Positions 3,675-35,667 of a DNA stretch of 47,352 nt are shown here, in pieces (positions within the stretch are counted from its first letter, which is position 1; each line of letters begins with the position of its first letter). Under the pieces are notes generated by a model. That model searched no databases, was not told the DNA's origin, and saw only the letters and a program-made list of their open reading frames with translations. This DNA is from Myxococcota bacterium (GTDB taxonomy: Bacteria > Myxococcota_A > UBA9160 > PR03), in NCBI GenBank assembly GCA_041611735.1, contig JBFIML010000035.1, positions 1-47,352 on the forward strand, written 5' to 3'. Made by a program: the position numbers and the translations under genes.

Positions 3675-5035
3675 GGGGCCCGTCTGCGTCGCCAGCGGGC
3701 GGCGAAGCTCGCACCGGGATGGGGCGGGAGCTCGCGCGCTGCGAGCCAGCCGCCGGCGGGGTTCCCCGGCCAGCGGCGCGCGAGCAACGGCCAGGCGAGG
3801 CGCAGCAGCCGCCCGCTGGCCCGGTACAGGGTGGGACGCGCCAGCAGCGCGGCGGCCAGGCGCGCGGCCCAGCGCAGGCGCGCGGGTGCGGCCGGCACCT
3901 CCCGTCGCCAGGCCAGGAGCTGGCCGTGCAGGTCGATCCCCACCGGGCATACCGCGCTGCAGCTTCCGCACAGGGAAGAGGCCAGCGGCAGTGTGCGGAC
4001 CGCTGGGTCCGCGGTCAGCGCCGGCGCCAGCACGGCCCCGATCGGGCCGGCCACGGACGTGCCGTAGGCGTGCCCCCCGGCACGCCGATAGACGGGGCAG
4101 GTGTTCAGGCAGGCGCCGCAGCGGATGCAGGCCAGCGCATCCCGATGCGTCGGGCTCGCCAGCAGCCGCGTGCGCCCATTGTCGACGATCACCACGTGCA
4201 GCTCGCCACCGGGTCGAGGGCCCGTCACCAGCGTGGTGTAGGCGGTGATCGGCTGGCCGGTGGCGCTCCGCGCCAGCAGGCGCAGGAAGAGCGCCAGGTC
4301 GTCGAGATCCGGGACCAGCTTCTCGATGCCCATGCAGGCCACGTGCAGCCCGGGCAGGGTCATCCCGAGATCGGCGTTGCCCTCGTTGGTGCAGACGACG
4401 AGGCTGCCGGTCTCCGCCACGGCGAAGTTCACGCCGCTGATGGCCGCCTGGGCGGCGAGGAAGCGCGGCCGCAGGTCCCGGCGCGCGTGCTCCGTGAGCC
4501 GCACCGGGTCCGACTCGCCGGCGGGCGTGCCCAGATGGCGATGGAAGAGCTCCCCGATCTCGCCACGGCGGCGGTGGATCGCGGGCACCACGATGTGGGA
4601 GGGCGGCTCCCGGCGCAGCTGCACGATGCGCTCGCCCAGATCCGTGTCCACCACCTCGATGCCACGCGCCTCCAGGTGCGGGTTGAGGCCGCACTCCTCG
4701 GTGAGCATGGACTTGCTCTTCACCACCCGGCGCGCGCCGCGTTCGAGCAGCAGCTCCTCGACGATCCGGTTGTGGGCGGCCGCGTCCCCGGCGAAGTGCA
4801 CCACCGCCCCGGCGGCGCGCGCCCGGGCCTCGAAGCGCTCCAGGTAGAGGTCGAGGTGGTCGAGGACGTGGCGCTTGACCGCCGCCGCGCGCTGCCGCAG
4901 GGCCTCGAACTCCGGCAGGGCGGCCACGGCGGCATCCCGGCGCCGGCGCAGATCGAAGACCGCGGCGTCGTGACGCGCCACCGCCCGGTCGTCGGGCAGG
5001 TTCACGCGGGCGCGGGCGTCGAGGGGAAGCCTCAC
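3671..5035 (-). CDS. lutB: Lactate utilization Fe-S protein B (YkgF-like)
   Basis: KSKSMLTEE, DTDLGE, PSHIVVPAIH, TNEGN, CIRCGACLNTCP and SSLCGSCSAVCP; GTG start overlaps the lutA stop. Confidence 0.92.
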   Translation of the reverse strand: MRLPLDARARVNLPDDRAVARHDAAVFDLRRRRDAAVAALPEFEALRQRAAAVKRHVLDHLDLYLERFEARARAAGAVVHFAGDAAAHNRIVEELLLERGARRVVKSKSMLTEECGLNPHLEARGIEVVDTDLGERIVQLRREPPSHIVVPAIHRRRGEIGELFHRHLGTPAGESDPVRLTEHARRDLRPRFLAAQAAISGVNFAVAETGSLVVCTNEGNADLGMTLPGLHVACMGIEKLVPDLDDLALFLRLLARSATGQPITAYTTLVTGPRPGGELHVVIVDNGRTRLLASPTHRDALACIRCGACLNTCPVYRRAGGHAYGTSVAGPIGAVLAPALTADPAVRTLPLASSLCGSCSAVCPVGIDLHGQLLAWRREVPAAPARLRWAARLAAALLARPTLYRASGRLLRLAWPLLARRWPGNPAGGWLAARELPPHPGASFAARWRRRRAP

Positions 5036-5787: not shown

Positions 5788-7862
<2,075 letters not shown>

Positions 7863-23598: not shown

Positions 23599-23616
23599 CG
23601 AGACGCCGGCCGTCTC
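23599..23616. terminator. Short hairpin between convergent genes
   Basis: GAGACG-ccggc-CGTCTC stem between two stop codons; no U-tract. Confidence 0.3.
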
Positions 23617-24292
23617 AGGCGGCGAGCGGAAAGCGGTCACGCAGTGCGTCGAGCACCAGACGCTCGGCGCAGTCCATGCTGAGCGTTCCGGTGTTCACGG
23701 CCAGGTCGTAGAGCAGCGGATCGTCCTGATCCACGCCGAACTGGCGGCGCACGAACTCGCGCCGCTGCTCGTCCTCCTGCTCCAGCTCCTGGGCGGCGTC
23801 TTCCCGGGAGAGCTCCCGCTCCCGGGCCATGCGCTCGATGCGGAATGCGATCGGCGCCACCACCAGCACCCGCAGAGCCTGCTCGGGGGGCAGCACGAAG
23901 GGTGCCCCCCGGCCCAGGAGCACCGCCATGCCCCGCTCGCCGAGGGTGGCGATCGTCCGCACCACGTGTTTCAGGTAGTCGCTCTCCCGGAACGAGCGGC
24001 CGCGGAAGGCGTCGGTCGCGTAGCGGTCAATCGTGCTGCGCATGCGCTCGTCGAGTCCGGTCAGGAGCTGCCGCTGCACGCCCTGCTCGCGCTCGATCTC
24101 GTCGATGATCTCGCGGCCGAAGAGACCATAGTCGAGCCTCTCCGCCACCCGGCGGCCGAGCTCGCCGCCCCCCGACCAGGGCAGGCGGGAGATAGCCACG
24201 CAGGGCTGGTGGGGGCGCGCCTTGCGGGCGCGTTCGCCCATCTCCCAGCGCTTCACCTGCTGGCTGACCAGGATTTCCAGGCTGCGCGGCAC
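23615..24292 (-). CDS. Cytidylate kinase-like family protein
   Basis: ISRLPWSGGGELGRRVAERL, VLLGRGA and YDLAVNT; GTG start with AGGGG RBS. Confidence 0.85.
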   Translation of the reverse strand: MPRSLEILVSQQVKRWEMGERARKARPHQPCVAISRLPWSGGGELGRRVAERLDYGLFGREIIDEIEREQGVQRQLLTGLDERMRSTIDRYATDAFRGRSFRESDYLKHVVRTIATLGERGMAVLLGRGAPFVLPPEQALRVLVVAPIAFRIERMARERELSREDAAQELEQEDEQRREFVRRQFGVDQDDPLLYDLAVNTGTLSMDCAERLVLDALRDRFPLAA

Positions 24293-24416
24293 GAACTCGC
24301 CCCCTGTGGCCGGTGGAGCGGGGAATCTAGCGCCCCGTGCCGATTCCGACAGGAGTCGCACCACCCTTGCAGGAGGTAGGGTCCACGGGTGTATCCTCGC
24401 GCGGGGAGGGATCTCC

Positions 24417-25688
24417 ATGGACTCGACCTCGGCTCCCTCGTCGCGGCGCACGCCCGTTCCCGGACCGCTCGTGCGCGCCGCCCGGCGGGCGGTGCATGCG
24501 GGATTGCGACGCCTGGAGCGGGGCTGCCTCACCCTGGTGGAGGACGGCGTCGAGACGCGCTTCGGCTCGCCCGACGACGCCTCGGGGATCAAGGCCACCG
24601 TCACCATCCACGATCCCCGCTTCCACCTCCTGCTCCTGCGCCACGGATCCCTCGGCGCCGGCGAGGCCTTCATGGACGGCCTGTGGAGCTGTGACGACCT
24701 CGCCTCAACGGTGCGGATCCTGGCGGTGAACGAGCCGGCGCTCGCGCGTCTCGATGGCCTGACGGCCCGGTTGGCGCGGCCGCTGCGACGCGTGCGCCAC
24801 GCGCTGCGGCGCAACAGCCGGCGGGGTAGCCAGCGCAACATTGCCGACCACTACGACCTCGGCAACGAGTTCTTCGCGCTCTTCCTGGATCCCACCCTCA
24901 CGTACTCCTGCGGCATCTTCGAGCGGCCGGACACCTCGCTCGAGGAGGCTTCACGCGCCAAGTACGAGCGCATCTGCCACAAGCTGGCGCTCACGCCGGA
25001 CGATCACGTGCTGGAGATCGGCGGGGGCTGGGGCGGCTTCGCCCTGCACGCCGCCGGCCGCTACGGATGCCGGGTGACGACGACGACGATCTCCCGGGCC
25101 CAGTACGACCTCGCACGCCGGCGCATCGCCGAGGCGGGGCTCGCCGATCGCGTCGAGATCCTGCGGCGCGATTACCGGGATCTCGAAGGCACCTACGACA
25201 AGCTCGTCTCCATCGAGATGATCGAGGCCGTCGGAAAGGAGTACTTCGACGCCTACTTCCGCACGTGTAGCGAACGGCTGCGCCCGGACGGCCTCATGCT
25301 GCTCCAGGCGATCGTCGTGCCCGAGGAGCGCTGGGAGGTCTCCAAGCGCTCGGTGGATTTCATCAAGCGCTACATCTTTCCGGGCGGCTGCCTCATCTCC
25401 GTGGGTGCGATCGCCGCCTCGCTGGGGCGGGTGACGGACTTCCGGATCGTCCACCTGGAGGACCTGAGCGCCCACTACGCGCGCACGCTCGCCCGCTGGC
25501 GGGAGCGCTTCCTGAGTCAACAGGACCGGGTGCGCCAGCTCGGCTTCCCGGAGCGGTTCCTGCGCCTGTGGGAGTTCTACCTGGGGCTCTGCGAGGGGGG
25601 CTTCGCGGAGCGCTACAACGGCGTCGTGCAGATGCTGCTGGCGAAGCGCCTCGATCGCCGCGAGCCGCTCCTCGGCGCGCTGCCCTAG
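24417..25688 (+). CDS. Cyclopropane-fatty-acyl-phospholipid synthase-family SAM methyltransferase
   Basis: NIADHYDLGNEFF, YSCG, LEIGGGWG, SIEMIEAVG, FIKRYIFPGG and WEFYLGLCEGGF. Confidence 0.92.
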   Translation: MDSTSAPSSRRTPVPGPLVRAARRAVHAGLRRLERGCLTLVEDGVETRFGSPDDASGIKATVTIHDPRFHLLLLRHGSLGAGEAFMDGLWSCDDLASTVRILAVNEPALARLDGLTARLARPLRRVRHALRRNSRRGSQRNIADHYDLGNEFFALFLDPTLTYSCGIFERPDTSLEEASRAKYERICHKLALTPDDHVLEIGGGWGGFALHAAGRYGCRVTTTTISRAQYDLARRRIAEAGLADRVEILRRDYRDLEGTYDKLVSIEMIEAVGKEYFDAYFRTCSERLRPDGLMLLQAIVVPEERWEVSKRSVDFIKRYIFPGGCLISVGAIAASLGRVTDFRIVHLEDLSAHYARTLARWRERFLSQQDRVRQLGFPERFLRLWEFYLGLCEGGFAERYNGVVQMLLAKRLDRREPLLGALP

Positions 25689-28505: not shown

Positions 28506-28922
28506 TCAGCGCCCGGGGCCGCCCCGCACCCCGTTTCGAAGCTGGGAGCCTCCGGCCGAAGTCTTGCCGCCCGGCGTGCCCTGGCGTCGGGTCGCCTGGA
28601 GAGCCGGGCTGTGGGAGAAGGAGGAGACCGAGCGCCGGAACGGCGAGCCGCACGACGTACAGCTCTGCCAGGGGCGCTGGGTCCAGGCGGGAAGCGAGCT
28701 CGGGATCTCGGTCCGGACCGGCCCCGGGGAGCTCGCAATGGCCTGGTAGCGATCCGCGCCCTCGATGCTCGGCCGTCGGCTCGGTGCGTCGAGCAGGCTG
28801 CGGTAGCGGCTCTGCATGTGGGCGCCGTCCCAGTCGTCGCCGGAGGCTGCCGCCGCGCCTTCCGGCGCCAGGACCAGCAGGAGGACCAGGCCCGCAACCA
28901 CCGACCCGCCAGTGCTCCGCAT
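28506..28922 (-). CDS. Small hypothetical secreted protein
   Basis: GGAGGTG RBS, clear signal peptide and a CTSC motif; it fills the gap between flanking genes. Confidence 0.55.
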   Translation of the reverse strand: MRSTGGSVVAGLVLLLVLAPEGAAAASGDDWDGAHMQSRYRSLLDAPSRRPSIEGADRYQAIASSPGPVRTEIPSSLPAWTQRPWQSCTSCGSPFRRSVSSFSHSPALQATRRQGTPGGKTSAGGSQLRNGVRGGPGR

Positions 28923-29003
28923 GCCTGCACCTCCCGCCCGCGGCGCTCGCGCGCGGGCCTTCCCCTCGGTGGGTGTCCGACGGGCGGGACCAGGTGACGG
29001 GGC

Positions 29004-29921
29004 TCAGAAGAAGAGGCTGCGGCGCGCGCGCCGCCCGCGGTCCAGGAGATCCGCCACGGCCCGCTTCACCGCCCGGACCTTCGCCTCCACCACCGCATCC
29101 TCCTCGTTGGGCTCGCCTTCGAAGTGAAGCGGTGCCCCGAAATGGATGTGGTACTTGACCGGCAACGCCAGCGCGATGCCAAGGGGCCCGAGCCACGGAA
29201 AGGTGACCGTGATGGGCAGCGAGGGCAGACCGAGGCTCCGGGCCACACCCTTCAGGTTCGCCAGGCCGGGCTGCTGCTCCTCGGAGCCCACGATGCCGAC
29301 GGGCACCACGGGCGCCCGGGTCTCCAGGGCGATGCGCAGGAAGCCCATACCGAAGGGCTGCAGCCGGTAGCGCTGGCGGAACGGCTTGTTCGCGCCGTCC
29401 GCCCCTTCGGGAAAGACCATCACGCACTCCCCGGCCTCGAGCATCTCGACGCAGTTCTCGGGCGTGCCCACCACCGTCCCGGTGCGCGACAGGGTGGTCC
29501 CCACACCGGGCACGTGCCAGAGCGCGTACTCGCTCATCCCCCGGCAGATGCGCGGCGGCTCCGCGTCGAGGACCAGGGCGAGGGCGAGCATGATGCCGTC
29601 GTAGCCCACCTGACCGGCATGGTTGGCAACCAGCAGGACCCCGCCCGGCGGGACCTGCTCGATCCCGTGGGTCTCGACCCGGAACCAGTAGCGGTAGGCC
29701 AGGCCGGCCAGCAGCAGCCAGGGGCGGGCGGCCTCCGGGTGGAAGCCGTAGGGGTCGTAGCCGTACTCGTTCAGACGCAAGGGAGTCTCGTGCAGGCGCT
29801 CCCGGATCTCCGCCTCCAGCGCTCCGACGCCGGGCAGGAGCCCCCGGGCGCCCTCGAAGAGCTTGCGTCCGAGGCCCGGAAGGTCCGCCGGCCGGGTGCG
29901 CGCGGGTCGCACGGCGCTCAC
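29004..29921 (-). CDS. Lysophospholipid/glycerol acyltransferase (PlsC family)
   Basis: GYDPYG, LVANHAG...DG (HX4-5D), VFPEG and PVVPVGIVGSEE. Confidence 0.9.
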   Translation of the reverse strand: MSAVRPARTRPADLPGLGRKLFEGARGLLPGVGALEAEIRERLHETPLRLNEYGYDPYGFHPEAARPWLLLAGLAYRYWFRVETHGIEQVPPGGVLLVANHAGQVGYDGIMLALALVLDAEPPRICRGMSEYALWHVPGVGTTLSRTGTVVGTPENCVEMLEAGECVMVFPEGADGANKPFRQRYRLQPFGMGFLRIALETRAPVVPVGIVGSEEQQPGLANLKGVARSLGLPSLPITVTFPWLGPLGIALALPVKYHIHFGAPLHFEGEPNEEDAVVEAKVRAVKRAVADLLDRGRRARRSLFF

Positions 29922-30068
29922 CGGACCGCCAGCACCGGGCGGGCGAGCTCGCTCACGGGAGCCTCGGCACCGGCGGGGAGCACCACGTCCTCCCAGGTTC
30001 GACGGGCTACAGCATCGGGCGTCCCGACCGGTCCGCGCAAGCCCCGGTGCTCGCCGTAGCCGCTCGGT

Positions 30069-31250
30069 TCACGTCTCCCGCGGGAGGCCGGCGCGCCGCT
30101 TCCGCTTCCCGAGCAGGTTCAGCTTGAAACGCCGCACCGTCTCGGCCTCGATCACGGAGGCATCCGGAGCGCGGAACGAGAGCGCATCGAAGGGGCACTG
30201 GACGATGCAGGCGCCACACTGGACGCAGGCTCCGGCGCGCGGGAGGGTGGCGCGCCGCCGCGCGACGTCCATCTCGAACACCCGGGTGGGACAGACCTGC
30301 TCGCAGAAGCCCGCGCCCCGGCAGCGCTCCTCGTCGAGCGCGATGGCGAGCAGGCGATCCTCGTGGAGCCCGCTCTTGTAGGTCGGCGTGCTGCCCGCGA
30401 GGTCGAGGCTCAGGATCCCCAGCACCGCGAGCGAGGCGAGCCCCCAGCCCAGCACGAAGCTCCCCCCGAGATCCTCGCGGACGGCCACCAGCCCCAGCAG
30501 GACCGCCAGGAAGGCCCCCCACAGCAGGAGCGCCACCCCGTGGCGACCGAAGTCGAAGAAGACGCAGCCGACCCGCCTCCCCGTCCTGCGTAGCCGGGAC
30601 TCGTAGAGCGGAAACGCCAGGAACAGGGCGAGCGAGAGGACCCACACCAGCGCCGCCAGCCGGAGGACGCCCCAGCCGAGGAACGGCGCCGCCAGCAGGA
30701 CGCCCAGCAGGGAGATCGGGAAGGCCCATGCCACGGCCATCTCGAGCCGCTGGGGCCAGGGAAAACTCACGCGGCGCATCTCCACATCCGCCTCGAGCCC
30801 CCGGGCCAGGAACGCCGGGACGTCGTCGGCCCGGACCGGCCCCCAGACGACGCGCCAACCGGTCCGCCGGTGCACCCCCCGCCCGTCCACGCCCGTCGCG
30901 GCGAGCTGGGGAAGGATCACCCGGCGATGATCCACCCGGTGGGCAATCCCGCTGGTCTTGAGGGCGGAGATCACGTCGTGGTCCGTCAACAAGCCCCCCG
31001 TCGCGGCGCACCAGACGTTCACGCCCCGGCTGTTCGCCACCAGCAGGTAGGCGTCCAGACCACGCCAGCTGCGTCGCACGCGCTCCACGGTCAGCCGGAA
31101 GTTGCCGGTGAGGAGCACCGGGGCGCCGCGACCCGGATTGCCGAGGACCACGAGGCCCGTACGGCACGGGAACGGCAGCATGCGGAGCAGCGTCTGCACC
31201 ACCGTGACCCGGAGGAAGCCGAGCCACGCGCGAACTTCGGCAACGGTCAT
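30069..31250 (-). CDS. HgcAB-like fusion protein (CdhD-type corrinoid domain + TM helices + ferredoxin)
   Basis: GNP...PVLLTGNF.LT, GVNVWCAATGG, LPQLAATGV and WGPVRA; four or five hydrophobic helices; C-terminal CRGAGFCEQVCP and CVQCGACIVQCP. Confidence 0.9.
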   Translation of the reverse strand: MTVAEVRAWLGFLRVTVVQTLLRMLPFPCRTGLVVLGNPGRGAPVLLTGNFRLTVERVRRSWRGLDAYLLVANSRGVNVWCAATGGLLTDHDVISALKTSGIAHRVDHRRVILPQLAATGVDGRGVHRRTGWRVVWGPVRADDVPAFLARGLEADVEMRRVSFPWPQRLEMAVAWAFPISLLGVLLAAPFLGWGVLRLAALVWVLSLALFLAFPLYESRLRRTGRRVGCVFFDFGRHGVALLLWGAFLAVLLGLVAVREDLGGSFVLGWGLASLAVLGILSLDLAGSTPTYKSGLHEDRLLAIALDEERCRGAGFCEQVCPTRVFEMDVARRRATLPRAGACVQCGACIVQCPFDALSFRAPDASVIEAETVRRFKLNLLGKRKRRAGLPRET

Positions 31251-31897
31251 CGACGGGCCACGATCTCGACCCAGCCTCCCAGACCGCCGACTCGCGTCTC
31301 GACCGGCTCGAGCCCGCAGTGGCGCAGCCGGCCCGGAAGCTCCGCGACCGGGTGGGTCGTCTGCTGGGTGAGGAGATAGGTCAACGCCACCAGCGGCGCC
31401 CGCAAGAGGCCGTGGAGGATGCGACGCGGCCGGGTGCCGGGCCGGGCCTCGTCCGCGATCAGGAGCAGCCCTCCCGGCCGGAGGATGCGCGCCACCTGCT
31501 CCAGCGTGTACGCGATCTCGTCCTCGCTCAGCTCGGACAGGCAGAGACCGCAGGTAACCACGTCGTAGCTCTCGGACGGCTCGCGATCGAGCTCCGCCAC
31601 GCCCTGCTCGCGGAGCTCGATGCGCTCCGCCACCCCTGCCCGGCGCGCCTGCCGCGCGGCGATCTCCAGCATCTCCGGGTTGACGTCGATGCCCGTCACC
31701 CGGGCACCGCGCCGCGCGGCCCGGACCGCCAGAGCGCCGGTCCCGACCCCCAGGTCCAGCACCCGCTGGCCCGGGGAAATGCGTTGCGCCAGGCGATCGT
31801 AGGCCCGGTCGACGGCGCCCAGGGTGAGGAGCCGGATCCCGAACTCGTAGCGGCGGGGCGCCGACTCGAGGATGCGCATGAGGACGTAGGTGCTCAG
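31247..31897 (-). CDS. cpaM: Class I SAM methyltransferase, corrinoid protein-associated (CpaM-like)
   Basis: VLDLGVGTG, GIDVNPEML and LRPGGLLLIADE; N-terminal MRILESAPRRY; ATGA overlap with the hgcAB-like gene. First ATG is 31879; an in-frame CTG at 31897 is the possible true start. Family name is from recall. Confidence 0.8.
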   Translation of the reverse strand: MSTYVLMRILESAPRRYEFGIRLLTLGAVDRAYDRLAQRISPGQRVLDLGVGTGALAVRAARRGARVTGIDVNPEMLEIAARQARRAGVAERIELREQGVAELDREPSESYDVVTCGLCLSELSEDEIAYTLEQVARILRPGGLLLIADEARPGTRPRRILHGLLRAPLVALTYLLTQQTTHPVAELPGRLRHCGLEPVETRVGGLGGWVEIVARR

Positions 31898-31901
31898 GTG
31901 C

Positions 31902-32630
31902 CTACCACTCCTCCACCCACGGCCGCAGGTCGAGCTCGTGGGTCCAGGCGCTGCGGGGCTGGGCGTGCAAGGCCCAGTAGCTCTCGGCCACGTCGTCGGG
32001 GCGGAGCAGGCCGTCCGGCGGACGCGCCTCCACCAGCTTCGGGAAGTTCTCGCGGATCCACGGCATGTCGATCGGCCCGTCGATCACCACGTGCGCCACG
32101 TGGATGCCCTGGGGCCCGAGCTCCCGAGCCATGCTCTGGGCCAGGGCCCGCAGCGCGTGCTTGGCGCCGGCGAAGCCGGCCATGAGCGGACGCCCGCGGA
32201 CGCTCGCCGTGGCCCCCGTGAAGAGGATCGTCCCGCGGCCGCGCGGCGCCATGCGTCGCGCCGCTTCGCGCCCGACCAGGAAGCCCGAGAAGCAGGCCAT
32301 CTGCCAGATCTTGAAGTACTTGCGGCTGGAGAACTCCAGGATCGGGATGGGGACGTTGGCGCCGATGTTGTGGATGGCCACCTCCACCGGGCCGAGCTCC
32401 GCCTCCACCCGCTCGAAGAGGGCGACCACCTGCTCTTCGTCGCGGGCGTCCACACCGAAGGGGGTCGCCCGATTGCCCGCCTGGCGGATCTGCGTGCAGA
32501 GGGCCTCGAGCTTCTCCGCGCCCCGGCGCACGACGCCCACGTGCAGGCCCTCGCGCGCAAAGCGACGCGCGATCGCCCCGCCGAGGCCCGCACCGGCCCC
32601 GAACACGAGGGCGACCTGCGCGTCCCCCAT
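31902..32630 (-). CDS. SDR-family oxidoreductase
   Basis: GAGAGLG, HNIGAN, FTGATAS, FAGAK, HVAHVVIDG and SAWTHELDLRP. Confidence 0.92.
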   Translation of the reverse strand: MGDAQVALVFGAGAGLGGAIARRFAREGLHVGVVRRGAEKLEALCTQIRQAGNRATPFGVDARDEEQVVALFERVEAELGPVEVAIHNIGANVPIPILEFSSRKYFKIWQMACFSGFLVGREAARRMAPRGRGTILFTGATASVRGRPLMAGFAGAKHALRALAQSMARELGPQGIHVAHVVIDGPIDMPWIRENFPKLVEARPPDGLLRPDDVAESYWALHAQPRSAWTHELDLRPWVEEW

Positions 32631-32636
32631 GCCGCC

Positions 32637-33245
32637 TCAGGCGCCGGCCTGGAGCGCCTTCTCCACCAGGAGAAGGCGGTCGTTGCCGAAGTACATCTCG
32701 TCGCCCACGAAGCAGGCCGGCGCCCCGAAGACGCCGCGCGCCACGGCCTCGTCCGTGGTCTCGCGCAGGGCTCGCTTGATGTTCGGGTCCCGGGCGGCCT
32801 CGATCAGGGCAGAGGCGTCGAGGCCGGCCGCCACCAGCACCCGGGCGAACTCGTCGGGATCCCCCAGGTTCCGGGCCTCGGCCCAGAAGGCCGGGAAGAC
32901 GGCGGCGTGGAAGGGCTCGAAGAGCCCCGCGCGGAGCGCCGCGTGGGCCGCCCGCATGAGGCGAAGCGTATCGATGGGGAAGTGCGGATTGAAGCGGAGC
33001 GGGACGCCGTAGTGCTCCCCCCAGCGGCGCAGGTCCAGGGCGGCATGGCGGCGCTTGGCCTCCACGGGCTCGAAGGCCGGCGAGTGGTTGCCCGTCACCT
33101 TGTAGACCCCGCCCAGGAGCATGGGCCGGTAGACGAGCTGGCAGCCGGTCCGGCGGCGCAGGCCGGCGAGTTGCGTGTCCGCCAGGTAGCTGTAGGGGCT
33201 TCCGTAGTCGAAGAAGAACTCGAGTCGGGCCACCAGGCTCTCCAA
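32637..33245 (-). CDS. 2-hydroxychromene-2-carboxylate isomerase / DsbA-like GST-kappa protein
   Basis: FFFDYGSPYSYLA, PMLLGG, GVFGAP and FGNDRL. Confidence 0.9.
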   Translation of the reverse strand: MESLVARLEFFFDYGSPYSYLADTQLAGLRRRTGCQLVYRPMLLGGVYKVTGNHSPAFEPVEAKRRHAALDLRRWGEHYGVPLRFNPHFPIDTLRLMRAAHAALRAGLFEPFHAAVFPAFWAEARNLGDPDEFARVLVAAGLDASALIEAARDPNIKRALRETTDEAVARGVFGAPACFVGDEMYFGNDRLLLVEKALQAGA

Positions 33246-33324
33246 GCGCCTCCGATCCTACCCGCAGGGGCCGCCAGGGAGCAAACGAGGCGCGGATTGC
33301 GGAAGCCTGGGCTCGCGTGGTTGA

Positions 33325-35667
33325 ATGGAAAAGCGGGGTCGGAGCGTCGTCGTGGCAGGCAGGCAGTGGACAGGCTGGCTGGGAGTATGGATCGGTTGGC
33401 TGATCCTGCTCTCCTCCCCCGCGTCGGCCCTGGTCACCACCGGCTCCCTGGACACGCCGGGCCAGGCGCTGGCCGTGCAGGTGGTGGACGGCCTCGCCTA
33501 CCTGGCCGACGGCCTCGCCGGCCTGCGCGTGATCGACGTCTCCGACCCGACCGCACCCCGAGAGGTCGGGGCGCTGGCGACTCCCGGCTCCGCCTCGGAC
33601 GTGATCGTGTCGGACGGCATCGCCTGGGTTGCGGGCGCGGGCCGCGGCCTGCGGGTCGTCGACGTATCCGATCCCACCGCGCCTCGGGAGATCGGCGCCC
33701 TGGACACCGTGGCGGCCTTCGGTCTCGCGCGCCTGGGCAACCTCGTGTACGTGGCCGACGGGGCTGCGGGCCTGCGCATCCTGGACGGGACGGACCCGAC
33801 ACGACCCGTGGAGCGCGGCGCGCTCGACACCCCGGGCTCGGCCCGAGCCGTGGTCGTGGCCGGCGGCCTGGCTTACGTGGCCGATGCCGAGGCCGGGCTG
33901 CGCATCGTGGACGTGGGCGATCCCGCCGCTCCCGTGGCGCGGGGCGCCCTCGACACCCCGGGCTCCGCCCGGGCCGTATTCGTGGTGGAAGGCATCGCCT
34001 ACGTGGCGGACGCGGAGGCGGGCCTGCGCATCGTGGACGTCGCAGACCCGGACGCGCCGGCGGAGCTCGGCGTCCTCGACGTCGGAGGCCCCGGTCAGCC
34101 GGTCCAGGGCGTCACCGTGGTGGGCCGCCTCGCCTTCCTCGCCATGGAGAGCCGGGGCCTCCAGCTCGCGGACGTCGGGGATCCGAGCCGGCCGTTGGCG
34201 CTCGGCGCCCTCTCCACGCCGGGCGGCGCCCGGGACGTGACCGTCGTCGGACGCTTCGCCCACGTGGCGGACCTCGACCGTGGCTTGCACGTCGCAGACG
34301 TCTCGAACCCCGGGAACCCGCTGGAGATCGCCACCGCCCCGACGGACAACTCGGGTGCAGACCTGGTCCTCGGGGACGGCATCGCCTACGTGGCCAACTC
34401 GTTCTCGGGCCTCGTCCTCTTCGACGTCTCGGACCCCACGAAGCCGGCCCGCCTGGGCCGGATCGGCCTGGACGACCCACGGGACGTGGAGGTGATCGAC
34501 GGGATCGCCTACGTGGCCGACGAAGACGTGGGGCTGCGCATCCTGGACGTCGCGAATCCGTTCGCTCCCAGGGAGATCGGGACCGCTGTCATGCCGAGGG
34601 GAGCCCTCGACGTGGCGGTGGTGGACGGTGTGGCGTACGCCACCGGGGGATCGGTTTTCTCGTCCCCCGGGAACCTCTGGATCTTCGACGTCTCCGACCC
34701 GACCGCCCCGGACCTGATCTTCGTCGTCGGCCCCATCGCCGCGAGCCGGGTCGACGTGGTCGACGGCGTCGCCTACGTCACCGCCGACTTCCCGGACCTG
34801 CGGACGATCGACGTGTCCGACCCCGCTGCGCCGGTGCGCCTCGGCGTCTTCGACACGCCGGAGAATGCTCTGGACGTACAGGTGGCGGACGGCGTGGCGT
34901 ACCTGGCCGTTCCGCAAGCGGCCGTGCGCATCCTGGACGTCTCGGATCCCGCGGCGCCCCGAGAGCTCGGCGTGCTCCCGGTTCTCGCCGCCTTCGTCGG
35001 CGACGTGGACCTCGTGGACTCGCTGCTCTTCGTGACCGCCGGAGCGGACGTCCTGGCCGTGGACGTCGCGGACCCCACGGCTCCACGGGTGGTGGGCGGC
35101 TTCCCCCTCCCCCCGTTCGGATTCGCCAGCGACGTCGCCATGGACGGCACCATCGCCTTCGTCCCGGGCGGCCCCGGCAACGTCCTGCGCGTGATCGACT
35201 TCGGCCCGGAGTACGCCGCGCGCCTGCAAGCCGCGCTGGACGTGAGGCCCGACTCCTGCCCGAACCCCTGGAATCCCACCTCCCGCGGCGTCCTGCCGCT
35301 GGCCGTGCTCGGATCCCCGGGCTTCGACGCCAGCCAGATCGACCTGGAGAGCGTGGTGCTGTCCCGCGCCGACGGCGTGGGTGGGGAAGTCCCGCCCGAG
35401 GCGGGGCCGACCGGCCCGCAGCCGGTCCTCGCCGACGTGGGAAGCCCCTTCGAGGCCGACGCCTGCGCCTGCCACGCGGGTGGCCCCGACGGCCACGTGG
35501 ACCTGGCGCTCAAGTTCCGGACCCCGGCCCTGGCCGGGGCTCTCGCCCCGGGCGAGCTCGTCGAGCTCGTCCTGAGCGGGCGGCTCCGCGACGGCCGGCG
35601 CTTCGAGGGGCGCGACTGCGCGCGGGTCGTGCCGACCGCCAGGCGGCGCGGGGGCTCTGGCAGCTAG
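33325..35667 (+). CDS. Secreted LVIVD-repeat beta-propeller protein with uncharacterised C-terminal domain
   Basis: Signal peptide and 14 repeats of about 42 aa (AYVAD..GLRIVDVSDP..P), then LDVRPDSCPNP.N..SRGVLPLAVLGS. Confidence 0.88.
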   Translation: MEKRGRSVVVAGRQWTGWLGVWIGWLILLSSPASALVTTGSLDTPGQALAVQVVDGLAYLADGLAGLRVIDVSDPTAPREVGALATPGSASDVIVSDGIAWVAGAGRGLRVVDVSDPTAPREIGALDTVAAFGLARLGNLVYVADGAAGLRILDGTDPTRPVERGALDTPGSARAVVVAGGLAYVADAEAGLRIVDVGDPAAPVARGALDTPGSARAVFVVEGIAYVADAEAGLRIVDVADPDAPAELGVLDVGGPGQPVQGVTVVGRLAFLAMESRGLQLADVGDPSRPLALGALSTPGGARDVTVVGRFAHVADLDRGLHVADVSNPGNPLEIATAPTDNSGADLVLGDGIAYVANSFSGLVLFDVSDPTKPARLGRIGLDDPRDVEVIDGIAYVADEDVGLRILDVANPFAPREIGTAVMPRGALDVAVVDGVAYATGGSVFSSPGNLWIFDVSDPTAPDLIFVVGPIAASRVDVVDGVAYVTADFPDLRTIDVSDPAAPVRLGVFDTPENALDVQVADGVAYLAVPQAAVRILDVSDPAAPRELGVLPVLAAFVGDVDLVDSLLFVTAGADVLAVDVADPTAPRVVGGFPLPPFGFASDVAMDGTIAFVPGGPGNVLRVIDFGPEYAARLQAALDVRPDSCPNPWNPTSRGVLPLAVLGSPGFDASQIDLESVVLSRADGVGGEVPPEAGPTGPQPVLADVGSPFEADACACHAGGPDGHVDLALKFRTPALAGALAPGELVELVLSGRLRDGRRFEGRDCARVVPTARRRGGSGS
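33430..35210 (+). repeat. Intragenic tandem repeats (~126-nt period) encoding LVIVD units
   Basis: Units 4 and 5 remain highly similar at DNA level (ctcgacaccccgggctc...ctgcgcatcgtggacgt). Confidence 0.85.

Follow-up and report, generated by a model that had tools for sequence, protein, structure and literature searches.

Two adjoining genes on the minus strand occupy positions 30069 to 31897 of a 47,352-nucleotide stretch of DNA from a Myxococcota bacterium (contig JBFIML010000035.1 of assembly GCA_041611735.1), which we analysed at its full length and call the window. The first encodes CpaM, a class I methyltransferase of the type that depends on S-adenosylmethionine (SAM), in an open reading frame (ORF) running from 31879 to 31247 (210 aa from its ATG), and the second encodes an HgcAB-like fusion protein of 393 aa (31250 to 30069). 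The plus strand reads tcat at 31247-31250, i.e. ATGA on the coding strand, so that the TGA stop of cpaM overlaps the ATG of the HgcAB-like gene. This overlap had been described in the original prediction, a reading of the bare sequence that proposed the two genes as one new module for methyl relay, and it is confirmed. Judging from the sequence, the window almost certainly carries one copy of a CpaM and HgcAB-like module, with the following features.

31247..31879, minus strand: cpaM, class I SAM-dependent methyltransferase of 210 aa if translated from ATG 31879, or possibly of 216 aa if from CTG 31897
31736..31750, minus strand: glycine motif G-x-G-x-G of CpaM (residues 44-48), presumed from its conservation to bind SAM
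31541..31555, minus strand: TCGLC, CpaM residues 109-113, not a family feature by alignment counts
31247..31250, minus strand: ATGA in which the stop of cpaM overlaps the start of the HgcAB-like gene, read from the sequence
30069..31250, minus strand: HgcAB-like fusion protein, 393 aa (NCBIfam NF043039)
30801..31172, minus strand: corrinoid-binding (Rossmann) domain, HgcAB-like residues ~27-150 (PF03599 CdhD, profile and fold matches)
30993..31019, minus strand: motif N-V-W-C-A-A-T-G-G of the cap helix, residues 78-86, whose Cys81 is presumed to ligate cobalt (alignment)
30411..30758, minus strand: membrane domain, four predicted helices at about residues 165-191, 194-222, 239-257, and 263-280 (hydropathy and structure model)
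30171..30353, minus strand: ferredoxin-like domain, HgcAB-like residues ~300-360 (Pfam Fer4 families)
30288-30323, minus strand: first ferredoxin motif, HgcAB-like residues 310-321, C-x2-A-x2-C-x3-C-P (alignment)
30102..30134, minus strand: basic C-terminal helix R-R-F-K-L-N-L-L-G-K-R, HgcAB-like residues 373-383 (alignment and structure model)

Both proteins belong to families that have a name. CpaM matches the NCBIfam family 'corrinoid protein-associated methyltransferase CpaM' over its full length (NF043040; 267.7 bits for a cutoff of 180, E 5.9e-80, residues 1-209 on profile positions 5-215 of 216), and its partner matches 'HgcAB-like fusion protein' (NF043039; 430 bits for a cutoff of 285, E 9.4e-129, residues 16-358), the cutoffs of the two families being curated and of the equivalog type. 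For both window proteins, the nearest relatives in the databases have 72% identity, and NCBI has already put the names on relatives in Gemmatimonadota, Binatia, Myxococcota, Methylomirabilales, Planctomycetota, Baldrarchaeia, and cultured Thermococcus, with CpaM named in T. argininiproducens and other members of that genus. The novelty claimed for the pair thus falls away: the module is named and widespread.

The evidence that the two proteins form a unit comes from other genomes. We scanned for loci with an alignment of 25 CpaM relatives (A2), with one genome per species, and kept the best 80 of 377 confirmed matches; this closer alignment was used in place of a more diverse one (A1), and distant CpaM relatives are therefore under-sampled. 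Our own CpaM profile splits the 80 loci into 21 with a true CpaM (262-311 bits) and 59 with a generic methyltransferase (at most 106 bits). All 20 assessable CpaM loci (20 of 21; the contig of the last one, L010, ends 81 nt past CpaM) have an HgcAB-like ORF immediately after cpaM on its strand, vs none of the 59 generic loci, where it was sought within 6 kb. Finding CpaM homologues consistently adjacent to fused HgcAB-like genes was the outcome of a survey that the original prediction had set beforehand as a test able to refute it. The spacing between the genes, with start codons picked by a simple rule, is a 4-nt overlap in ten of the 20 loci, -1 in three, -8 in two, -14 in one, and +2, +5, +28, and +659 once each; it thus stays between -14 and +5 nt in 18 of the 20, with the gene order of the window. 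The recurrence of this order and near-zero spacing means that the arrangement in the window is more than chance. The hosts are diverse: Acidobacteriota, Gemmatimonadota, Desulfobacteraceae, Anaerolineae, Lentisphaeria, Ignavibacteriaceae, Thiohalobacter, and, among Archaea, Methanofastidiosia and Desulfurococcales. Pairwise distances of CpaM and of the HgcAB-like protein also correlate across 16 complete pairs (r = 0.90, with 0/5000 permutations as high).

In some lineages the two proteins are a single polypeptide. A search with CpaM of 1.84 billion cluster representatives gave 86 matches at E <= 1e-30 and 1334 at E <= 1e-10, and we considered all 20 representatives of at least 350 aa among the best 150 CpaM relatives. 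Nineteen of these have an N-terminal CpaM followed by an HgcA(B)-like domain in the same chain, and the twentieth is a UbiE-UbiG fusion. Both curated models score above cutoff in eight of the 19, seven of which are full three-part fusions of 582-644 aa. Fourteen fusions share only 28-47% identity with the reference fusion (P0335), all with the cap-helix Cys kept and a short linker. With HgcAB-like genes downstream in 20/20 assessable loci vs 0/59 controls, and fusions in 19 of 20 long relatives, the functional link between CpaM and the HgcAB-like protein is strong, and the two genes are one functional module, as had been proposed.

The anatomy of CpaM is that of a Rossmann methyltransferase with traits of its own. 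It matches the Pfam family Methyltransf_25 (E 2e-22), and its AlphaFold2 (AF2) model (pLDDT 89.5, pTM 0.87) shows the Rossmann methyltransferase fold with a long inserted helix at residues 150-171. Among 48 diverse CpaM, the glycines G44, G46, and G48 are 98-100% conserved and D65 is 98% conserved, a pattern from which we infer that CpaM binds SAM; at least 90% conservation is also found for E5, P8, Y11, and D12 of the N-terminal helix, S-E-L at 115-117, D-E-x-x-P at 143-147, and R160. CpaM is below the cutoffs for UbiE/MenG (60.5 bits vs 158.35 for TIGR01934, 58.3 vs 216 for NF001244) and for the arsenite methyltransferase ArsM (NF008823, 52.2 bits vs 263, with a match in the Rossmann core only). 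The TCGLC to which attention had been drawn is indeed present after the SAM-binding motifs (residues 109-113, nt 31555-31541, C-terminal to the GxGxG at 44-48), but it does not mark the family: its two Cys sites hold a Cys in 5/48 and 10/48 diverse CpaM (8/25 and 23/25 close relatives), and we rejected it as a metal-binding or relay motif on this ground.

The start of CpaM deserves a remark. Five codons separate CTG 31897 from ATG 31879 and encode S-T-Y-V-L, and reading the CTG as Met gives the family N-terminal consensus M-S-T-Y-V-L-M; a Shine-Dalgarno-like GGAGGAG stands 10 nt before the CTG (CTG and GGAGGAG within 31895-31913, minus strand), inside the 3' end of the upstream SDR gene, and no ATG, GTG, or TTG occurs between the CTG and ATG 31879. 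Because of these three observations, CpaM may start at CTG 31897, a position identical to the end coordinate given in the original prediction.

The HgcAB-like protein holds its corrinoid, membrane, and ferredoxin domains in one chain, as indicated by Pfam matches to CdhD and Fer4, four hydrophobic helices, and an AF2 model (pLDDT 83.9, pTM 0.81). The model runs from an N-terminal helix through a Rossmann corrinoid domain (~27-150), four membrane helices (~165-280), and the ferredoxin (~300-360) to a C-terminal helix (369-379). The corrinoid domain matches PF03599 CdhD (E 9e-12) and, by profile, the large subunit of CFeSP (2h9a/4c1n/4djd; E 5e-19 to 3e-16). The best fold match of the model is 9a0b_A, a deposited computed model of HgcA (E 2.5e-11), followed by CFeSP large subunits (root-mean-square deviation 1.8-3.1 A over 131-135 columns); a sequence search of solved structures with the protein found no solved HgcA. 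The N-V-W-C of the cap helix, with Cys81, and its final G-G are invariant in 30/30 aligned family members. Cys81 is the counterpart of Cys93 in the HgcA of ND132 (PMC7305189). Hydropathy gives four hydrophobic segments, which the model places as helices at 165-191, 194-211 plus 213-222, 239-257, and 263-280. Since the number of helices is even and the loop between helices 2 and 3 is basic, the corrinoid and ferredoxin domains are both predicted to be cytoplasmic.

The ferredoxin domain is unusual in its first half. Fe-S motif 1 has Ala313 in place of the second Cys, which is missing in 26/29 family rows (Ala in 23) and present in the three-part CpaM fusions and in three of the surveyed loci (L011, L017, and L018). 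Motif 2 (residues 342-353) is a full CxxCxxCxxxCP, complete in 29/29 rows. By its sequence, the motif 1 site may hold a [3Fe-4S] cluster, or it may be no plain cluster site. Downstream of the two motifs, 28/29 rows have no Cys, and the window protein has none in the 40 residues after motif 2. The basic tail motif (R-R-F-K-L-N-L-L-G-K-R in the window) is found in 27/30 rows and is absent from the two Anaerolineae copies.

Two relatives of the HgcAB-like protein depart from this plan. The gene of a Desulfobacteraceae metagenome-assembled genome (L014, ORF 6280-7428) has a single in-frame TGA at 7195-7197, where 29/29 aligned relatives have the first Cys of motif 1, and reading through it gives a full-length protein. 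This TGA is a candidate selenocysteine codon, or else marks a pseudogene or a sequencing error. A search for a selenocysteine insertion sequence gave weak support, with a hairpin ~12 nt downstream of the TGA at a z-score of +1.10 (177/200 shuffles fold as well), and the hairpin region had no Rfam match. A selenocysteine would fit the motif 1 site as a substrate-handling thiol/selenol and not as a cluster ligand. In 'Candidatus Phoenicimicrobium oleiphilum' (L006, 6668-7435) the HgcAB-like gene encodes only 255 aa: the final two membrane helices and the entire ferredoxin domain are missing, and the basic C-terminal motif is kept. This short form reflects either a deletion or a fault of assembly.

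The following local neighbours of the pair in the window share its strand.

31902..32630, minus strand: SDR oxidoreductase (PF00106, E 3e-36)
32637..33245, minus strand: DSBA-like thioredoxin-fold protein (PF01323, E 1e-46)
29004..29921, minus strand: PlsC-type acyltransferase, 147 nt downstream of the pair (PF01553, E 4.6e-18)

The DSBA-like gene (33245 to 32637) precedes the SDR gene (31902 at its end, 32630 at its start) by 6 nt, and the SDR stop lies 22 nt from ATG 31879, or 4 nt from the start at CTG 31897. The prediction had listed a GST-kappa-like and an SDR gene a few nt upstream; the genes, the strand, and the small gaps are as described, but their association with the pair is local. 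The label 'GST-kappa-like' fits in so far as PF01323 is, as we take it, the family that holds the kappa-GST/HCCA-isomerase group; NCBIfam gave no match for the DSBA-like protein. An all-against-all comparison of ORFs from the 21 CpaM loci and the window showed that only CpaM and the HgcAB-like gene, with their antisense shadows, recur in more than nine loci. None of the 21 related loci has a counterpart of the SDR, DSBA-like, or acyltransferase gene next to the pair, and we rejected these three as members of the module. Pfam annotation of 93 flanking ORFs revealed no third conserved partner, only scattered repeats of TetR, LolA-like, PEMT-like, ABC-2 transporter, and thiol-redox proteins. With no further gene conserved next to theirs, CpaM and the HgcAB-like protein look self-sufficient.

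Some of the scattered neighbours are worth recording. TetR regulators lie just upstream of cpaM in 5/21 loci (L001, L015, L017, L018, and L020, as grouped by clustering) and LolA-like proteins nearby in three, which might hint, weakly, at a small hydrophobic inducer or substrate. PEMT-like membrane methyltransferases directly adjoin the pair in L006 (5480-5983) and L011 (2422-2970), and a Methanofastidiosia locus (L003) has two extra class I methyltransferases (4317-4946 and 6179-6979), one of which separates cpaM from the HgcAB-like gene. In the window itself, a 780-aa LVIVD beta-propeller repeat protein (33325-35667, plus strand; PF08309, E 5e-81, 8 stretches) is divergent to the adjoining DSBA-like gene, and a cyclopropane-fatty-acid-synthase ORF (24222-25688, plus strand) has its CMAS domain at residues 201-471, with ~200 extra N-terminal residues in the call. 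These overlap a cytidylate-kinase-like ORF on the opposite strand (23615-24841, minus strand), so the true start of the synthase is probably later. A scan of 28800-33500 for promoters and terminators found no sites, and tblastn of the HgcAB-like protein against plasmids gave no match. The remaining window has ordinary chromosomal content (GC 72.3%), with no cobalamin, arsenic, or mercury genes.

Fused HgcAB has been known since 2015, and its genes form a clade of their own (PMC10083202). Cells of Pyrococcus furiosus and Methanococcoides methylutens, which have fused HgcAB, produced no methylmercury above controls (PMC4646819, PMC5893877). Surveys of mercury methylation routinely catch fused HgcAB-like genes and then set them aside (PMC10087281, PMC10083202), because their function is unknown. 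For the true HgcAB, work on the purified proteins from 2024 found that the cobalamin is methylated by SAM and not by methyl-folate (PMC11588087), and a 2026 preprint describes heterologous HgcAB that dechlorinates the halomethane CCl4 besides methylating Hg (10.64898/2026.04.26.720869). Our literature search on CpaM, including hgcA paralogs with a SAM-dependent methyltransferase, found no paper, though Haft & Gwadz 2023 may treat the families.

How might the two proteins work together? The HgcAB-like protein would sit in the membrane with its corrinoid-binding and ferredoxin domains both in the cytoplasm, holding a corrinoid whose cobalt has Cys81 as its lower ligand. Its own Fe-S domain would reduce the cobalt to Co(I), CpaM would bind SAM, dock on the corrinoid domain, and methylate Co(I) to methyl-Co(III), and the methyl group would then pass to an acceptor at or in the membrane, probably not Hg(II). 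Such a relay from SAM through a corrinoid to an acceptor appears chemically reasonable by analogy, since purified HgcAB takes its methyl group from SAM (PMC11588087). Counting the identities of the two proteins and this outline together, we lean slightly towards accepting the reading; the relay by itself seems to us about evenly balanced between right and wrong.

Several points weigh against this relay. We know of no class I methyltransferase that methylates a corrinoid, and the matches of CpaM among solved structures, by fold and by sequence, are generic small-molecule methyltransferases only (MitM, RebM, Coq5, and PE N-methyltransferase). The case is built on sequence, gene context, fusions, and models, and the gene context lends the acceptor no support. 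The survey ran in one direction only, from CpaM to the HgcAB-like gene. The correlation between the distances of the two proteins could stem from shared descent alone. The fusions are metagenome gene calls read as proteins only, and single cases could be artefacts; as they fall into nineteen separate 50%-identity clusters, it is unlikely that all of them are. Finally, true HgcAB is methylated by SAM without an accessory methyltransferase (PMC11588087), and CpaM may therefore not be needed for loading the cobalt.

Other explanations share part of this evidence. CpaM could be a repair partner only, with SAM and an electron from the Fe-S domain re-methylating Co(II) and the routine methyl donor coming from a gene elsewhere; the reactivation of methionine synthase is the model for such a role. 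Reductive methylation requires just what the module supplies, namely a SAM binder and domains for electron transfer and for the corrinoid, and corrinoid proteins of the CFeSP fold are known to need activators (4c1n). Yet no second methyltransferase is conserved beside the pair, and the strict 1:1 pairing, the translational overlap, and the single-chain fusions fit a stoichiometric catalytic partner better, so that we regard a pure repair role as improbable. The proteins could also act in parallel rather than in series, the corrinoid protein carrying out other redox chemistry (e.g. reductive dehalogenation) and CpaM methylating the substrate or product directly. The preprint on CCl4 dechlorination by HgcAB (10.64898/2026.04.26.720869) speaks for this, as do the small-molecule methyltransferases that are the nearest folds to CpaM and the TetR genes upstream of 5/21 loci with their hint of a small hydrophobic inducer. 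The invariant Cys on the cap helix is, however, a feature tied to methyl transfer in HgcA (PMC7305189), and a methyltransferase-corrinoid fusion of fixed order with a short linker would be unusual for pathway enzymes unless the domains meet; we consider parallel action unlikely.

Two further alternatives fare worse. That the pair is a cryptic but real mercury-methylating system seems very improbable: the homology to HgcA (E 1e-46) and HgcB (E 4e-14) and the cap-helix Cys are there, and those who tested P. furiosus note that the lack of cellular methylmercury does not prove the fused protein inactive (PMC4646819), but the scores are below the cutoffs (159.6 vs 275 bits for HgcA, 52.3 vs 99 for HgcB), the cap helix has T-G-G and not G-K, no Cys follows the Fe-S motifs, and two cultured organisms with fused genes made no methylmercury (PMC4646819, PMC5893877). 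Hardly credible at all is an ordinary quinone methyltransferase of the UbiE/MenG type whose adjacency to the corrinoid protein is incidental, which the prediction had named as the case that would undo it. JGI pipelines do label many homologues UbiE/MenG, and Coq5, at TM 0.79, is one of the top matches by fold, but scores of 58-60 bits vs cutoffs of 158-216, adjacency in 20/20 vs 0/59 loci, and the existence of fusions to the corrinoid protein contradict independent action of this kind.

If the relay from SAM through CpaM to the HgcAB-like corrinoid is taken at its boldest, CpaM would become the first case of a class I enzyme, with a Rossmann fold, that uses SAM to methylate a protein-bound corrinoid, and the pair a self-contained membrane methylation machine for an electrophile other than mercury. 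It would work through a Cys-ligated methyl-corrinoid, in aerobes and anaerobes alike, on an acceptor that could be a metal(loid) or else a lipid or quinone of the membrane. We put this forward tentatively, as a possible but doubtful extension, within which the original function that gave rise to mercury methylation may be the one seen in this pair. The results show that fused HgcAB-like genes come with a dedicated SAM-type methyltransferase, sometimes as one polypeptide, in a module that needs no other conserved gene and thus offers a concrete two-protein system to reconstitute. This connects with the 2024 finding that SAM and not methyl-folate feeds true HgcAB (PMC11588087). The acceptor, if found, would reveal the purpose of this branch within the HgcA family and could bear on why mercury methylation exists. 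The practical consequence for annotation is to count CpaM and HgcAB-like genes neither as mercury methylators nor as UbiE/MenG.

Comparison with known systems places the pair among them. Relative to the NCBIfam pair NF043040 and NF043039 there is no difference of substance, with both cutoffs exceeded and the order, overlap, and domains of 20 other genomes, apart from the copy in the window perhaps starting at CTG. UbiE, MenG, Coq5, and the small-molecule class I methyltransferases have the fold of CpaM (TM 0.79 for Coq5, TM 0.78 for MM_2633, E 5e-15 for MitM), whereas CpaM stays below every curated cutoff and has its own N-terminal helix, S-E-L, D-E-x-x-P, and inserted helix at 150-171. Methylation of Co(I) by SAM, with an electron donor that maintains the cobalt in its reduced state, also occurs in methionine synthase and in class B radical SAM enzymes. 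The SAM modules of these enzymes, the second group of which is also named in PMC11588087, have other folds, whereas CpaM is a class I Rossmann methyltransferase, separate from or fused to a membrane protein. The CFeSP/MeTr/RACo system of the Wood-Ljungdahl pathway shares the B12-binding Rossmann domain, a corrinoid carrier that docks on a separate methyltransferase (4djd), and reductive activation (activator 4c1n). Its donor is methyl-tetrahydrofolate through a TIM-barrel enzyme, unlike the SAM-type Rossmann methyltransferase CpaM, and CFeSP has neither the Cys ligand to cobalt nor the membrane domain, while the HgcAB-like protein has the membrane domain and, presumably, Cys81 as ligand; it scores below the cutoff for the CFeSP large subunit/acetyl-CoA decarbonylase-synthase gamma family (NF003195, 69.7 bits vs 306), with a match in the B12-binding domain only. 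HgcA and HgcB resemble the HgcAB-like protein in a homologous corrinoid domain, the invariant cap-helix Cys, a membrane domain, and a dicluster-type ferredoxin, and their methyl source is SAM (PMC11588087). They are two proteins, where the HgcAB-like protein is one fused chain that falls below both of their cutoffs (NF040863 for HgcA, to which only residues 27-173, the corrinoid domain, align, and NF040864 for HgcB). Its cap helix ends in T-G-G in the window and in G-G in 30/30 family rows, that of true HgcA in G-K, and the N(V/I)WC..GK motif that serves as the high-stringency criterion for HgcA (PMC10087281) thus leaves the window motif outside. Hydropathy and the model predict four helices in the HgcAB-like protein, vs five described for HgcA, and HgcB has two full CxxCxxCxxxCP motifs, Cys73, and Cys94/95 (PMC7305189), whereas here motif 1 is incomplete and there are no equivalents of Cys73 or of the C-terminal pair. 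Unlike HgcA and HgcB, finally, the HgcAB-like protein has a dedicated class I methyltransferase as its partner.

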